NCBI GenBank assembly: GCA_017616555.1
Contig: JAFZXZ010000016.1
Span: 24,642-88,641, forward strand
Origin: a bacterium
GTDB lineage: Bacteria > Auribacterota > UBA3054
DNA length: 64,000 nucleotides
Direction: 5' to 3'
Shown: positions 49,737 to 55,576 of the stretch, piece after piece
How positions within the stretch are numbered: position 1 is the first letter of the stretch
How the letters are laid out: every line of letters begins with the position of its first letter
Position numbers and translations under genes: made by a program
Notes under the pieces: generated by a model
Told to the model about the DNA's origin: nothing
The model's database searches: none
The model's input: only the letters and a program-made list of their open reading frames with translations

Positions 49737-51047
49737 TTATCTCTCAGCTCCCGCCCTTTTTCTCAGAGAGCCCAGGATAATGCCCAAAAAGGAAGCGGCC
49801 GCCAAAAGGAAAGGATAATAGATGCAGCCGACGAGGCCCAGTCCGCTGAATTCGGCCCCTGCGCTCCTGGCGATGCCGGTCGCCATAAGTATCTGCGCGC
49901 CGTAAGGTATTATCCCCTGCACAAAGCAGCCGGCGATATCGACGATGCCCGCCAATCTTACGGGATCGGCCTTGAATTTTCTGCCCAGCTGCCTGACGAC
50001 CGGGCCGGCTATGACGATGGCGACCGTATTGTTCGCCGTAAAGAGATTCACAAGCCCCGTGAGGAAAAAAGCGCCCAATTCGCAGCTTCTTTGTCCTTTG
50101 ACTTTCCTGGCGATAGCGTTTGTCAGCCACTCTATTCCGCCGGCCTCGGAAACCAGATTGAAAAGCCCGCCGGACAAAAGCGCGATAGTCAGCGTCTCGC
50201 TCATGCCAAGCGTCCCCTTTCCGGCCGTTTCCAAAGCTCCCCAGAAATCAAGCGGCCCGAAAACAACGCCCAGCAAAGCGGAAATGAACGTCCCCAAAAA
50301 GAGCACGACCACAACGTTTACGCCGACAAGCGCAAAAAGCAAGACCAAAACGTAAGGCAGTATCAGGATGAAGTCTTTTATTGAGACCGCAACGTTCGAA
50401 ACAGACTGCGCGCCGGACTGCGAAGACCCGGCGATGAGATAGATGAACAAAGTCACGAGCGCCGCCGGCACCGCCAGGGCAACGTTGGCGATGAATTTGT
50501 CCCTCATCCCGACGCCCTGCGTCCTGGTCGCCGCAATCGTCGTATCCGAGATCATGGAAAGGTTGTCGCCGAACATCGCGCTGGAAACGATCGAGCCGGC
50601 CAGCAAAGCCGGCGACAAGCCCAAAGGCTCGGAAAAAGCCATGGCGATCGGCGCCACCGCCGCGATCGTTCCGCAGCTCGTCCCCACCGCCAGAGAGATC
50701 AGAGATGAGACCAAAAACAGCCCGGCCACCATGAAGTTGTCGGGAATGATCCAGCGCGCTATAACGACAGCGGAATCGACCGCTCCGCTCGCCTTGGCCA
50801 CCGCCGCGAAAGCCCCAGCCAGAATAAAAATGAGGCACATCAGCATGATGTCCGGCTCTCCCATGCCCTTGGCCAGAGACTCTATCTTTTCCGAAAATTT
50901 CTTATCTCTTTGCAAAAAAAGCGCCGAGGCGATAGCCACCAGAAAAGCCACCGTCATGGGAACTCTGTAAAAATCCCTCGCTATGATGCCAAGCGTCACA
51001 TAAAAGACCGCGAAGACCGCGAAAGGAATAAGAGCGAAAGCGTTCAT
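49737..51047 (-). CDS. Na+/H+ antiporter NhaC-family transporter
   Basis: GTSCGTI, FGDNLSMISDTT, IPYGAQIL; ~12 TM helices. Confidence 0.85.
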   Translation of the reverse strand: MNAFALIPFAVFAVFYVTLGIIARDFYRVPMTVAFLVAIASALFLQRDKKFSEKIESLAKGMGEPDIMLMCLIFILAGAFAAVAKASGAVDSAVVIARWIIPDNFMVAGLFLVSSLISLAVGTSCGTIAAVAPIAMAFSEPLGLSPALLAGSIVSSAMFGDNLSMISDTTIAATRTQGVGMRDKFIANVALAVPAALVTLFIYLIAGSSQSGAQSVSNVAVSIKDFILILPYVLVLLFALVGVNVVVVLFLGTFISALLGVVFGPLDFWGALETAGKGTLGMSETLTIALLSGGLFNLVSEAGGIEWLTNAIARKVKGQRSCELGAFFLTGLVNLFTANNTVAIVIAGPVVRQLGRKFKADPVRLAGIVDIAGCFVQGIIPYGAQILMATGIARSAGAEFSGLGLVGCIYYPFLLAAASFLGIILGSLRKRAGAER

Positions 51048-53707
51048 CAGACTAAGTGTCTCCTAATGCCAATTAAAAATAAAACCAGCAAACCCAAAAG
51101 CCAGCAAGGCTCCGGAACATCGTTCTCGACCAATTCGAAAACATGCCAATCCAATCTCTCAAAAGCTTGAGCATAAGGTTTGAGCTTGTATTCTTCCGTC
51201 GAGACTCTCCTTTGCCCAATGCCGTCGAAAGTCAGCAAAAGTCCCAGCTTCGCCCCTTCAACACAGGGGAAGCAGTTGGTCGCGTCTTCATCAGGCCAGC
51301 AGGTATAGCCTCTGATACTTCCAAGATCGCAGGGAATCTTTATCTCCGCAATAAAACCGCCGTCGTCTGTCAAAACTTTCTTGACCTTTGCCCCAGTCGG
51401 CGACAAACCGCTCTTCCACTGCCCCATGCTCCTGGCGTCGTCCGAAGTGCTTATCAGCCTGTTGGCATACTGGTTGAAGATCTTGAAGCGGAAGGTGTCT
51501 CCGCCGAACCATGGTCCGCTCAAACCGGAACCGTCCAATTCTATGGTGATGCCGCAAAGCTTATCCGTCTTGAAAGCCAGATACAATCCGTCCTCGCGCC
51601 ATCCGGCGTAAGCCGTCACGTTGAAGTTCGTCACGTCTTTATTGCAGAGCGTTCCCTGCCCCCAGTAATTCCACTCTCCTTTTTCAATGACACCGTCGAA
51701 GTCAGGCTCCTCAAAAAGACTGGGGATCTTCTTATTGTAGCCTACGATCGGATACGGATCTTCGCCGTCCGCAAGGCCGTCGCCGTCCGTATCGGTATTG
51801 TTCGCGTCGCTGGGGAAATACAGCCCGGCGGTATATTCTTTAAGATCGCTCAGGCCATCGCCGTCGGTATCGCTTTCGGTAGGATCGGAATTCATTCTGA
51901 CTTCGTCGCCTGGCAATAAGAAATCGTCATCGCCTAAACCGTCATAATCGCTGTCGCGGTAAACATAACGCCCGTCCCACGGGCCCATCATGCCGAAATA
52001 ATTCGTGAATGGCCGCATGGCGTTGCCGCACCAGGAAAGGTCTTCCCCACCCGTGGCCCAGCCATAAATGGAATCATCCGGATGACTGCTGGCATATTCG
52101 TGATAACCGCTGTAAGAATACATCTGATCAACCGAGTGCATCATCTCATGCACCGTCACAAACGTCGTGCCGTCGCCGCCCCAGTTGCCCACCTGGGCGC
52201 ACATAACAGCACCCATGCCGGTGTAATAAGCGGATCCGCCGCCCCAGTTCCCGCCGCAGTGGCTCCAGCCGTTGCCGTAAGTGAAGACGAACATATCGTA
52301 CTCTTCATTCCAGATGCCCAAGGTCTTTCTGAGATCCCTGGCCATGATCCTGCCGCCCAGCTCCAATTCCCCGTATTCGTTGGTGTAGTTCCTGAAGAAA
52401 TCCGGTGCCGGCGGAATGATATTCCTGTAAACAGGATCGTATAAAAGCAAAAGCTGCGCATTGGAATTGCGGTAGTAGAATTCCTTGACCTGCGGATAAT
52501 AAATGTTGGTGTAATTGGCTGGCGGCGTATTGTTGCCCGCTCCCGTGTAGGCCGTCATCAGAATGTCCAGGCAGGGCACTTCGCCGTAAACGATAGGCAG
52601 ACTGTCCTGCGCGAAGAAACCCTTTACCGCAAAGACAGAATTCGTATCTTGGGAAGTCTTGGCGAACTCAAAAGTCAAAGAGCCAAGCCCGCCCTCCGAA
52701 ACGTAAACATCCGTAAAATTTTTATCCTCGCCGTTGCAGCCGAATTTCACCAATCTTCCGTTCTTCAAAAAACCGAAGGAAAAAACATTCTCTTCGACCA
52801 GTGCGGAAGTCGTCGCCAGAAGCTCATCATCTTTCATCAAGCTTCCCTCTTCCCCAATCTGAAGCTCTAGCAAAGTTTCCTCGCCAGAAAGGACTCGCAG
52901 ATTCCCCTGCGCTCCACCCGCCGATACGCTTCCGAATGTCAACTCCAGACCGCTGGAAAGAGAACTGCAATCGACATCAAAGCCTACCGCTTCACCGCCC
53001 ACAACGCAATCTGAATCGTCCCTTAAAACTACGCCATGTTTTTCAGCTTCTTCCCTGAACTTCACATTGTCAAGATAAAATCTCTCGAGACCGCTCTCAA
53101 CTTTAAAATCAAGATCTCCAGATTCCAAATCCGAAGCCAGCGCGAATCCCGCCAGCTCCACATCCTTATACGGCGTCTTGATTTTCAGCAGCCGATCATG
53201 AGTTAAAAGCAATTCCAGATGCTGCCACTTCCTGTGAAAGAGCGCCTGTACGCCCGGCAGTTCCCGCCAAGCGGGAGCATCGCCAAAATACGAACCGTAA
53301 ACTTCCAAAACAATCGCATTGGCGCCGACCTGCCTCAAACGCAGCAAAGGCGTGTCCCCTAAACTCACCACCGCGCTCTTCTCCGATAGGTCCTCAGACA
53401 AAGTCGCGTAAAAATCAAAAACGATCCTTTGTTCCTTATCAGCATCAAAAGCCACCGTGCGGGAAAGCGACGATTCCCCTGTCATCTCCACGGAGCGCTT
53501 GCCATATTTGAACCAGACCGCCACGTTTATGCTGTTCGTAGTATCGACGACCTGCGTCTCGCTGACCAGAACGCTATCCGTGGCGCTCCAGCCGTCCTGT
53601 CCGTTTAAAGCCCCGGGAGAAATATTCTCAAAATTGAAATACGCCGCCTCGCCGAAGGCGCCCAGCGCACTCAAAACCAGCAACAGAAAAAATAAGATCC
53701 TCTTCAT
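51047..53707 (-). CDS. multidomain exported PEP-CTERM protein with HExxH motif and Ca-binding DxDxDG repeats
   Basis: signal peptide; VHEMMH; DSDYDG, DTDGDGLSD, DTDGDGLADGED; PDFDGVIEKGEW (CBM9-like start); VPEP-TM-RRH. Confidence 0.8.
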   Translation of the reverse strand: MKRILFFLLLVLSALGAFGEAAYFNFENISPGALNGQDGWSATDSVLVSETQVVDTTNSINVAVWFKYGKRSVEMTGESSLSRTVAFDADKEQRIVFDFYATLSEDLSEKSAVVSLGDTPLLRLRQVGANAIVLEVYGSYFGDAPAWRELPGVQALFHRKWQHLELLLTHDRLLKIKTPYKDVELAGFALASDLESGDLDFKVESGLERFYLDNVKFREEAEKHGVVLRDDSDCVVGGEAVGFDVDCSSLSSGLELTFGSVSAGGAQGNLRVLSGEETLLELQIGEEGSLMKDDELLATTSALVEENVFSFGFLKNGRLVKFGCNGEDKNFTDVYVSEGGLGSLTFEFAKTSQDTNSVFAVKGFFAQDSLPIVYGEVPCLDILMTAYTGAGNNTPPANYTNIYYPQVKEFYYRNSNAQLLLLYDPVYRNIIPPAPDFFRNYTNEYGELELGGRIMARDLRKTLGIWNEEYDMFVFTYGNGWSHCGGNWGGGSAYYTGMGAVMCAQVGNWGGDGTTFVTVHEMMHSVDQMYSYSGYHEYASSHPDDSIYGWATGGEDLSWCGNAMRPFTNYFGMMGPWDGRYVYRDSDYDGLGDDDFLLPGDEVRMNSDPTESDTDGDGLSDLKEYTAGLYFPSDANNTDTDGDGLADGEDPYPIVGYNKKIPSLFEEPDFDGVIEKGEWNYWGQGTLCNKDVTNFNVTAYAGWREDGLYLAFKTDKLCGITIELDGSGLSGPWFGGDTFRFKIFNQYANRLISTSDDARSMGQWKSGLSPTGAKVKKVLTDDGGFIAEIKIPCDLGSIRGYTCWPDEDATNCFPCVEGAKLGLLLTFDGIGQRRVSTEEYKLKPYAQAFERLDWHVFELVENDVPEPCWLLGLLVLFLIGIRRHLV

Positions 53708-53756: not shown

Positions 53757-53787
53757 ACAAAAAAAGAGCGCCATTTAGGGCGCTCTT
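53757..53787 (-). terminator. rho-independent terminator after the FGE-domain gene
   Basis: AAGAGCGCC-CTAAAT-GGCGCTCTT followed by T run. Confidence 0.8.
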
Positions 53788-53810: not shown

Positions 53811-55517
53811 TCACTGTACCAGGAAGACTCGGAAGCCGTAGCCGCTGTAGTCGCCGAAGTTGGGCTTGCTGTATTCGCGGGTAGCCGAGCGGCAGTCGGC
53901 AGCGGGGCTGTAGCAGCCTCCGCCTCTAAGCGTGCGATAAGTTCCTGTTCTCGGGCCTTTGGGATCAGTAACTTCTTCTGACCCTAAATTAGCCTTATAC
54001 CAGTCGAGACACCATTCCCAGACGTTGCCGTGCATGTCGTAAAGGCCATAGTAATTGGGTTTGTATGTGCCCACAAAGTTATGCGCCTGATTTATCGTCC
54101 CTTCTTCGGGATTGCCGCCGCCGTCGTACCAATAGCGAGCCAATTCGTCCAAATCAAGATCCTTAGTCGTGCTGGTAAGATTATAGCCGCTGTTCAAGGC
54201 CGAATCTGTCATACCCCTGCAGGCGAACTCCCACTGCGCTTCGGTGGGAAGGTCAAAGATCAAACCGGTTTTTGTGCGGAGAATTCCGAAGAAAGAATCT
54301 TCGTCAACTCTATTGTTGGCGGGCCAGTTGGCGCCTTTTTCAGCGCCGCGAAGCATATTGTAAGATACTCTCTCCACCGGGCGAGTGACACCTTTGAACA
54401 GAGAAGGATTAGTGCCTGTCACCAGTTCGTACTGTTTCTGGGTGACTTCGAAAATACCGGCGTAGATAACTGGGGTCAACACTACTTGATGCCTGACTTC
54501 GTCGTCTTTTTTGCCCAGTTCTCCATCGCGGCTGCCAATCATAGAGCCCATAGGCTCGATCTTCTTTAAAACTAGTTTAGTTTTCTTGTGCTCCAGCGTC
54601 CAACCGCCTTCCGGCTCATTGTCGAGACTTGTGACCGGGAAACTAGCCGCTTCTGGTCCTCCTGAAAGATCGATCACAATATATTCGCCGCTGGGAGGGA
54701 GCGCCTGCTCGCTAGCTTCAACTTTGATAGCCAAATCATCGGTGACCGTATCATAGAAACTTTCATCCGGCGTCCATAAAGTTTCATGCCATCCTGTTCC
54801 GACAACAGGCCCCTCCGCTCCTTCTTTGCTTAAGGTTCCTCTTTCCGACAAATCAAAAAGATGCTCGCCAGAAAATCCGTCAAAATCAAAGCAGCCATAA
54901 ATCCTGATATTGAATGTAGGGTTAGCGTTATCGGAGGTAAGATAATAGTGAATAACCACGCTTCGATCAAAAGGCCAGTTCTGCCGACAATTGACCTGTT
55001 CGACCGCTCCTTCGGCCTCGGCACTGAAAAAACCTAACGTAGCGATCGTCAAAGCAGCGATCAGGCCTTTAATACGCTTGCGCAAGAAAATCGCGCCAAT
55101 TACAGCAATTGCGAACAGGCCCACGGGCTCCGGCAATATCGTAATCATACGACTATATTCCTTTGTTTCAAACTCCGTCTCTATCTTTTCTTTGAGCACA
55201 TATGTGTCATCGGTGGGAAAATCCTTGTATTTTTCATCAGTATAATCCCAGCAAAAAGCGCCTCCCCAATATCCAAAGGAAGAAGCGTAAAGTTGGGCCC
55301 ATATTTCCGGATTTTCCTGGTCTTCCACAGTTATTACAATAGACTTCGGTTGACCTTCCGCCAGGGAGCTGCTGTAGGTAATGGGAGCGTCCGGCCTCAA
55401 CAGGATCGGTTCATCCGTGATCTGACTCCCGTCAAAAGAAATTCCATAACACCAACCGTCGGCAAAAGCCGAAACGCAGAAAAGCGCCGCGATGCTGAGT
55501 AAAATTGCCTTTTTCAT
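53811..55517 (-). CDS. exported FGE-sulfatase (SUMF1/CLec-fold) domain protein with internal PEP-CTERM and second signal peptide
   Basis: FEVTQKQY, RPVERVSY, LPTEAQWEFACRG, GLYDMHGNVWEWCLD, LRGG, GFRV; LPEP-TM-RKR at residue ~129; start ATG 55517 after GGGAGA. Confidence 0.88.
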   Translation of the reverse strand: MKKAILLSIAALFCVSAFADGWCYGISFDGSQITDEPILLRPDAPITYSSSLAEGQPKSIVITVEDQENPEIWAQLYASSFGYWGGAFCWDYTDEKYKDFPTDDTYVLKEKIETEFETKEYSRMITILPEPVGLFAIAVIGAIFLRKRIKGLIAALTIATLGFFSAEAEGAVEQVNCRQNWPFDRSVVIHYYLTSDNANPTFNIRIYGCFDFDGFSGEHLFDLSERGTLSKEGAEGPVVGTGWHETLWTPDESFYDTVTDDLAIKVEASEQALPPSGEYIVIDLSGGPEAASFPVTSLDNEPEGGWTLEHKKTKLVLKKIEPMGSMIGSRDGELGKKDDEVRHQVVLTPVIYAGIFEVTQKQYELVTGTNPSLFKGVTRPVERVSYNMLRGAEKGANWPANNRVDEDSFFGILRTKTGLIFDLPTEAQWEFACRGMTDSALNSGYNLTSTTKDLDLDELARYWYDGGGNPEEGTINQAHNFVGTYKPNYYGLYDMHGNVWEWCLDWYKANLGSEEVTDPKGPRTGTYRTLRGGGCYSPAADCRSATREYSKPNFGDYSGYGFRVFLVQ

Positions 55518-55576
55518 TTTATATCTCCCAAAGTGGTACATTTGCTTTATTTTATCAAATTTTACTCAGAGAAAGA

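Follow-up and report, generated by a model that had tools for sequence, protein, structure and literature searches.

The best PDB match of the protein considered here is TvpA of Treponema denticola, the target of a diversity-generating retroelement (DGR); it has a cognate template repeat (TR) and reverse transcriptase (RT) and is diversified (PMC5758913). The features used in this work to define DGR targets, namely the RT, the TR, an initiation of mutagenic homing (IMH) sequence, AAC codons and the occurrence of remote targets, were taken from the same source (PMC5758913). The DNA analysed, called the window, was a stretch of 64,000 nucleotides (G000:C30:24642-88641) from a 1.66-Mb, 32-contig assembly that is 84% complete. 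It contains a gene for a protein with a C-terminal domain of the formylglycine-generating enzyme (FGE)-sulfatase family and C-type lectin (CLec) fold. The initial annotation had proposed that a DGR acts, or until recently acted, in trans on the 3' end of this gene, here called the tail, as a remote target. That proposal did not hold: no DGR RT, Avd or TR was found in the G000 genome or in eight congeneric genomes. Because the retroelement is missing in the whole genus and the sequence is conserved, we describe the tail as most likely a frozen relic and not an active generator of diversity. Probably it was once the variable region (VR) of a surface binding protein resembling TvpA and descends from an ancestor that had a DGR.

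The window protein resembles TvpA in its FGE-sulfatase domain, in the place of the variable or binding segment, at the extreme C-terminus between RGG and GFR, in being secreted or at the surface, and in having many paralogs per genome. Unlike TvpA, it is encoded without an RT, TR or Avd, and its segment is conserved over species and strains. Membership in the FGE-sulfatase family was established by a PF03781 score above the gathering score and by the FGE fold. A model of residues 330-576 (AlphaFold, 42 homologs as input) had a mean predicted local distance difference test score (pLDDT) of 93.7. Its top fold match in the PDB was TvpA (2y3c, E 1.1e-17, TMq 0.74), with catalytic FGEs and PvdO next, and TvpA also ranked first in the PDB by sequence (E 1.1e-18). 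Public gene calls place the start at M9, giving 568 residues, and an identical 568-residue protein is present in public collections.

The catalytic FGEs (SUMF1 and the enzymes of T. curvata and S. coelicolor) share with the window protein the Pfam family, the fold and the C-terminal motifs GG., C.R..R and GFR. The copper-binding catalytic cysteine pair (C-x4-C before R..R) is absent from the window protein. In a HMMER alignment with the T. curvata enzyme, the first copper-binding cysteine falls on Ser545 and only the second on a cysteine, Cys550, and the local spacing differs; judged from this alignment, catalytic activity is unlikely. PvdO and PorK/GldK are similar in using the FGE fold as a structural or binding module of secreted or outer-membrane proteins, and the window protein matched their NCBIfam models weakly, far below the cut-offs. 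They differ in that their C-terminal loops lack the layout and composition of DGR targets. No equivalog-level NCBIfam match was obtained for the window protein, all scores being far below the cut-offs.

DGR cassettes of Verrucomicrobiota contain targets of the same FGE subfamily, with 42-53% domain identity to the window protein, an identical layout (RGG-8-CRSA.R-4-P-7/8-GFR), loops rich in Y, S, G, N and D, and C-ending loop codons; one target ends in a PEP-CTERM signal. They differ from the window gene in having an RT 0.5-1.2 kb downstream together with a TR, and in the tail itself, where the window protein has Cys for the Trp of the SW motif (the W position of the relatives' TRs, in loop 1) and Glu and Lys at two loop positions. 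The closest relatives of G000 are ruminant-gut metagenome-assembled genomes (MAGs), and the homologs carry the names Kiritimatiellae, Lentisphaeria or Victivallales. Of the 79 related loci (36-98% identity), 8 encoded a DGR RT directly downstream of their FGE gene. Seven of these 8 yielded TR/VR pairs and served as positive controls for the TR searches, and in five pairs at least 88% of the TR-VR mismatches arose from TR adenines (Table 1). Mismatches in the cassettes lay mostly at adenines, and in the cleanest pairs only there; in the cleaner pairs the VR extends from RGG to GFR. A genome of the same phylum contained a 118-nt VR/TR pair in which 13/13 mismatches were at template adenines.

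The TRs of 6-7 related loci encode RGGSWNNNA.NCRSANRNNNNP.N.NNNIGFR. The full tail of the window gene, RGGGCYSPAADCRSATREYSKPNFGDYSGYGFR, has the same anchor layout, so that, as the initial annotation had suggested from its likeness to VRs, it is homologous, anchor for anchor, to the VRs of genuine DGR targets from its own FGE subfamily. Domain homology and the layout RGG..A..CRSA.R....P.......GFR of verified VR/TR pairs place the protein in the TvpA-like FGE/CLec subfamily. The gene also has a tail at the C-terminal VR position of the CLec/FGE-fold domain, and NNC codons at the positions that are templated by AAC. In a tree of the domain from which the tail was left out, DGR-adjacent members were scattered, well-supported branches requiring at least 5 changes. 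No DGR-adjacent member fell in the clade of 33 rows that unites the genus paralogs with a few loci from outside it, and the branch just below this clade, with weak support, was a DGR target. The FGE subfamily has probably been a DGR target repeatedly.

In codons 540 (GGC) to 570 (TTC), window 53924..53832, 25 of 31 codons ended in C, as compared with 3 of 25 in codons 515-539. The codon table agreed with the initial annotation on these counts and on the anchors RGG, CRSA.R and GFR. Genome-wide, C occupied 38.7% of third positions (TAC 65%, GGC 65%, TGC 89%). From the amino acids and the genome's codon usage, 18.0 C-ending codons were expected in the tail (P(>=25) = 0.003) and 10.2 in the 25 codons upstream (P(<=3) = 6e-4). 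The value of 25/31 alone was not unique, since 401 of 834,836 segments, in ~70 open reading frames (ORFs), reached it, many of them in ribosomal protein genes, rpoB and rpoC. No other of the 451,065 segments in called genes of the 1.66-Mb genome showed so extreme a step, in either direction, as this rise from 3/25 to 25/31. The codon step is confirmed, is sharper than first described once codons are classed by position, and is not due to chance, and well over half of it stems from amino acid composition and codon preference.

The excess was resolved by position. Loop codons were those aligned to adenine-containing codons of the relatives' TRs, and the rest of the tail was treated as scaffold. 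Under these classes, which were set by alignment after the data had been seen, 16/16 of the C-capable loop codons of the window gene ended in C, as against 8/14 at scaffold positions; within loops 2 and 3 (codons 556-568) every codon able to carry a third-position C did so. In the RT-free tails of the genus, a sample of only ~8 independent paralog lineages, C-ending codons made up 85% (210/246) of loop codons, 55% of scaffold codons and 41% of codons in the upstream domain. The corresponding values in verified VRs were 82%, 59% and 44%, and the genus tails were indistinguishable from them. At 4-fold sites of loop codons C reached 83% and G 6%, which excludes a general effect on GC content at third positions. 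Residues that cannot be reached from AAC (K, E, Q, M, W) occupied 6.5% of the genus loop positions, 19.5% of upstream positions and 2% of positions in true VRs. Six outgroup FGE paralogs of G000 showed only a mild tail effect (C 61% vs 52%, KEQMW 17%). The NNC imprint that had been predicted was present in so far as C-ending codons stood at the AAC-homologous positions; the same bias occurred in FGE homologs of RT-free genomes, which the initial annotation had named as evidence against its own proposal.

From these data we infer descent from a DGR-diversified ancestor and a binding function. The segment 53832..53924 would encode the predicted C-terminal ligand-binding loops of a secreted, non-catalytic FGE-sulfatase/CLec-fold protein, and would be the positional homolog of the VR that DGRs rewrite in related Verrucomicrobiota. 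The ancestor of this small-genome genus would have carried a DGR, of which RT, Avd and TR were later lost. The paralog tails would have been left fixed, that of the window gene probably held by purifying selection from a time earlier than the split of the genus into its species. An imprint of AAC codons turned to NNC would remain, partly decayed, at the formerly templated positions, with a part of the C excess presumably contributed by a composition rich in Tyr, Ser, Gly, Asp, Asn, Phe and Cys and by the genome's preference for C-ending codons. The tail would now be an ordinary, invariant binding surface.

It is possible, if on the whole unlikely, that the tail was never a DGR target, and that a conserved FGE/CLec core with binding loops acquired its NNC appearance through composition and through selection for preferred codons at critical residues. 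Composition and codon usage alone predict 18 of the tail's 25 C-ending codons. Highly expressed genes prefer C-ending codons, which are enriched in the EF-Tu, ribosomal protein and glycolytic genes, and the segments of the genome richest in third-position C (C3) fall in conserved motifs of core genes. Elsewhere in the window gene, invariant residues were richer in C3 than variable ones (0.74 vs 0.55 of expectation). The tails of all 14 FGE paralogs, when pooled, were enriched (observed/expected, o/e, 1.12 vs 0.87 upstream; one paralog group at expectation), the outgroup paralogs mildly so, and RGG, R.A.R and GFR are family-wide FGE motifs that are present in catalytic FGEs too. What this explanation accounts for less well is where the excess lies: at the loop positions homologous to TR adenines and not at the most conserved scaffold codons, and C-specific at 4-fold sites. 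The odds ratio of ~8 relative to the same amino acids upstream is above the enrichment in the genome's most C3-biased, highly expressed genes, the effect size equals that of real VRs, and the close homologs are real DGR targets.

The C3 preferences just described also weigh against a former VR, as do the late definition of the codon classes and the small number of lineages, and further observations point the same way. The Trp that is templated by TGG in all true VRs is replaced by Cys in the window gene, two of its loop positions hold Glu (GAA) and Lys (AAG), and the paralog tails differ by indels; ordinary mutation is needed to explain all three. The genome in which the retroelement was sought is only 84% complete. 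Between G000 and the congeneric genome G008, which have the most distant of the orthologs, codons for the same amino acid differed at 49% of upstream positions and at only 12.5% in the tail. The conserved tail codons were the C-ending ones, while the few non-C codons drifted at roughly the upstream rate, so templating or recombination was rejected as the cause of the low synonymous divergence of the tail; the persistence of C3 between species fits selection on C-ending loop codons as well as it fits incomplete decay. In other orthogroups, synonymous divergence of the tail was close to that upstream.

Conservation was measured over orthologs from six congeneric genomes (59-95% protein identity) and over 19 distinct full-length variants from public assemblies, which form two 90% clusters. 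Across the 7 species, 74% of tail columns were invariant, vs 43-61% in the rest of the protein, and 7/7 orthologs were rich in C3 in the tail (20-25 of 31), two species having gone down to 20-21 C-ending codons. In the window's own species cluster (8 variants), 1/31 tail columns varied, as compared with 40/534 elsewhere, and the tail was identical in 7/8. In the sister cluster 7/31 tail columns varied vs 41/533 elsewhere (p = 0.011), in the form of six discrete haplotypes. Among the tail changes, TTC->GTG and GGC->GCC go beyond adenine mutagenesis, and ACC->ATG is likewise not of the adenine type. Hypervariability confined to adenine-templated positions, as the initial annotation expected, was not observed in the 7 species or the 19 strain variants.

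A route independent of DGRs, in which tails are swapped among alleles, paralogs and species by homologous recombination at the conserved anchors, with the window tail currently under purifying selection, seems improbable for this gene. Tail-only replacement was seen in two other orthogroups, and one paralog is near-identical in two species that differ by 40% at the synonymous sites of other genes. A donor copy of the swapped tails was not found, however, and other species have the swapped tail type as an orthogroup of its own. The window tail showed no mosaicism beyond one strain variant with the TREYS haplotype of the other species, and recombination by itself does not explain the NNC imprint.

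The absence of an RT and TR from the window, noted initially, was confirmed and holds for the whole assembly. The RVT_1 (PF00078) profile had no match in the 84% complete G000 assembly and matched the control genomes. When a verified DGR RT from the same phylum and its Avd-like neighbour were compared with G000 by tblastn, the best E value was 0.92. The tail matched only itself in G000 by blastn. An adenine-tolerant scan of both strands of G000 returned the tail itself (111/111) and, as the next best hit, an A-rich coding sequence (85/111) that is no TR. DGR-class RTs were absent from the eight congeneric genomes, two of which were 92% complete (2.2 Mb, 10 contigs) and 93% complete. A genome-wide search of this kind, for a DGR-class RT and a TR copy, was the check that the initial annotation had set for itself, and an empty result in the genome and its close relatives was one of three outcomes it had named as speaking against it, of which two were observed here. 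A search of metagenome and viral contigs with an adenine-tolerant IUPAC pattern gave 2 copies of the VR in orthologs and no TR.

Candidates raised by the searches were rejected. Secondary blastn matches of 68-74% in the genus genomes were all coding tails of paralogs or orthologs, and matches to the L059-type tail were likewise coding tails. A weak RVT_1 match in G007 was not a DGR RT but of the UG39 class. It belongs to a 628-residue UG39 defence-associated RT (L130:2223-4109, minus strand, on G007:C178; PADLOC E 1e-125), the sole RT in the nine genus genomes. No IMH or scaffold DNA shared among co-targets was found: the window gene shares the motif GFRVFLVQ with three paralogs, but with different synonymous codons, which excludes a common IMH-like DNA, these paralogs differ at 8/24 bases there, and their loops differ in length. 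A single TR common to four GFRVFL paralogs was rejected because tail lengths and scaffold codons differ.

An active DGR acting remotely on the tail, with its RT, Avd and TR in the unassembled 16% or on a plasmid or phage dropped by binning, is very improbable. The genome is incomplete, MAG binning often loses mobile elements, remote targets occur in non-phage DGRs (e.g. 7 in Treponema; PMC5758913), the NNC imprint matches that of active VRs in strength, and the sister cluster has its mild excess of variable tail columns; against this, a DGR RT was found in 0/9 genus genomes, no TR was found by any of the searches, the tail is identical in 7/8 strain variants and nearly so over species at 59% protein identity, its few changes include non-adenine types, each paralog would need a TR of its own since tail lengths and scaffold codons differ, and the assembly runs unbroken through the tail within a contig of 240 kb. 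As a full explanation, chance or codon bias alone was rejected, the step being the genome's most extreme and the excess loop-specific and C-specific, as were general GC3, biased gene conversion or a 3' mRNA-structure effect, given the base composition of the 4-fold loop sites and the ordinary nature of the terminator hairpin.

The window protein belongs to a known family, and its frozen state is an expected evolutionary outcome. The data suggest that a reduced ruminant-gut lineage of Kiritimatiellae kept once-diversified lectin heads as fixed binding proteins after loss of the retroelement, which makes it a testable case of DGR-generated variants becoming hard-wired paralogs. A bolder and quite doubtful proposition is that loss of a DGR leaves a readable codon fossil, with ~8 paralogous lectins of a DGR-free genus keeping C at once-AAC-templated positions. 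If so, either the C-ending codons are still held in place, perhaps by selection acting on codons of the loops or by a mobile, never-binned DGR that re-templates them on rare occasions, or decay of the imprint is slow enough for the loss of the DGR to be dated. If the phenomenon were general, NNC fossils could map past DGR activity and targets in genomes that have no retroelement today, and the comparison of loop, scaffold and upstream codons offers a simple way to seek such relics elsewhere. The literature searched contained no specific account of VR relics, whether fixed, frozen or orphan, that lack a DGR. In annotating FGE/CLec genes, a VR-like tail of NNC codons does not suffice to call a DGR target, and RT, TR and variability are needed; the result tells a live hypermutation target from a fixed descendant, although the two look alike in raw sequence.

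Table 1. Coordinates of the tail, its gene and the related DGR loci used for comparison. Unless a locus is named, positions are those of the window.
Feature	Position	Strand	Details
FGE-sulfatase/CLec ORF	53811..55541	-	576 aa: signal peptide, N-terminal region, C-terminal FGE-sulfatase/CLec-fold domain
FGE-sulfatase (CLec-fold) domain, residues 343-572	53826..54515	-	PF03781, 97.5 bits (cut-off 23.3)
Anchor RGG, codons 539-541	53919..53927	-	AGA GGC GGA; aligned to RGG of relatives' TR/VR pairs
Loop 1, G-C-Y-S-P-A-A-D, codons 542-549	53895..53918	-	Corresponds to S-W-N-N-N-A-N-N of relatives' TRs
Anchor CRSATR, codons 550-555	53877..53894	-	TGC CGC TCG GCT ACC CGC; from codon table, paralog and TR alignments
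Loops 2 and 3, EYSK-P-NFGDYSGY, codons 556-568	53838..53876	-	Corresponds to NNNN-P-SN.NNNI of relatives' TRs
Anchor and C-terminus GFRVFLVQ, codons 569-576	53814..53837	-	Stop at 53811-53813
Intrinsic terminator hairpin	53764..53787	-	9-bp stem and T run, 24 nt past stop
Tail sequence, abridged			TGCCGCTCGGCT...GGCTTCCGAGTC; a matching template would be an AAC-rich copy of it
FGE loci adjacent to a DGR RT	L030, L073, L094, L096, L098, L103, L106, L127		Kiritimatiellae, Lentisphaeria and other Verrucomicrobiota MAGs
TR-VR mismatches from TR adenines	L094, L096, L098, L103, L106		22/22, 19/19, 12/12, 15/16, 15/17, respectively
TR-VR mismatches from TR adenines, less clean pairs	L127, L073		11/16 and 21/40, respectively
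DGR cassette next to an FGE-domain gene	L030		VR 128-245, RT 748-1833, TR 1864-1981

The hairpin listed in Table 1 was considered as a DGR cruciform and rejected as an ordinary terminator. Few genes of the genome are as poor in C3 as the FGE gene taken as a whole (53811-55541; o/e 0.69, z -7.8), and the same was observed in G005; in its orthologs in G006-G008, C3 over the whole gene is near expectation. The low C3 of the gene body in G000 and G005 is a lineage-specific compositional shift. The alanine of CRSA (window 53883-53885) is encoded by GCT in 7/7 ingroup G000 paralogs, GCT making up 19% of Ala codons. As a relic of a common TR this is a weak candidate, since this codon varies among the paralogs of the genus's other species and the lineage has shifted towards T-ending codons.

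There are ~8 related FGE paralogs in G000, including the window gene. One of them, L006 (G000:C2:86205-86933), differs from L054 of G006 at 3% of synonymous sites, and the window-gene orthologs of the same two species differ by 40%, which suggests a recent transfer of this paralog between species. The two tail-only replacements lie between near-identical flanks and involve the C2 paralog of G000 vs L059:6590-6724, and L062 vs L063. The swapped tails differ at third positions and by a 3-nt indel, so that mutagenesis of adenines in a single template does not account for them. The L059-type tail is an orthogroup in its own right, present in G003, G004 and G008.

The initial annotation had also coupled the tail to a polyprotein export scheme, a link to which the analysis gave no support. 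Signals of the PEP-CTERM type were seen at three places. In G032, the DGR target runs on past its VR into a PEP-CTERM-like sorting signal. Within the window protein, residues ~136-177 (window ~55010-55135) comprise an internal LPEP motif, a hydrophobic helix and RKR, a PEP-CTERM-like arrangement, followed by a second signal-peptide-like stretch, and all of these were kept in 19/19 strain variants. The adjoining downstream gene (window 51047-53707, minus strand) encodes an 886-residue secreted protein with Asp-rich repeats resembling thrombospondin type 3, followed by a terminal PEP-CTERM signal (VPEPCWLLGLLVLFLIGIRR).

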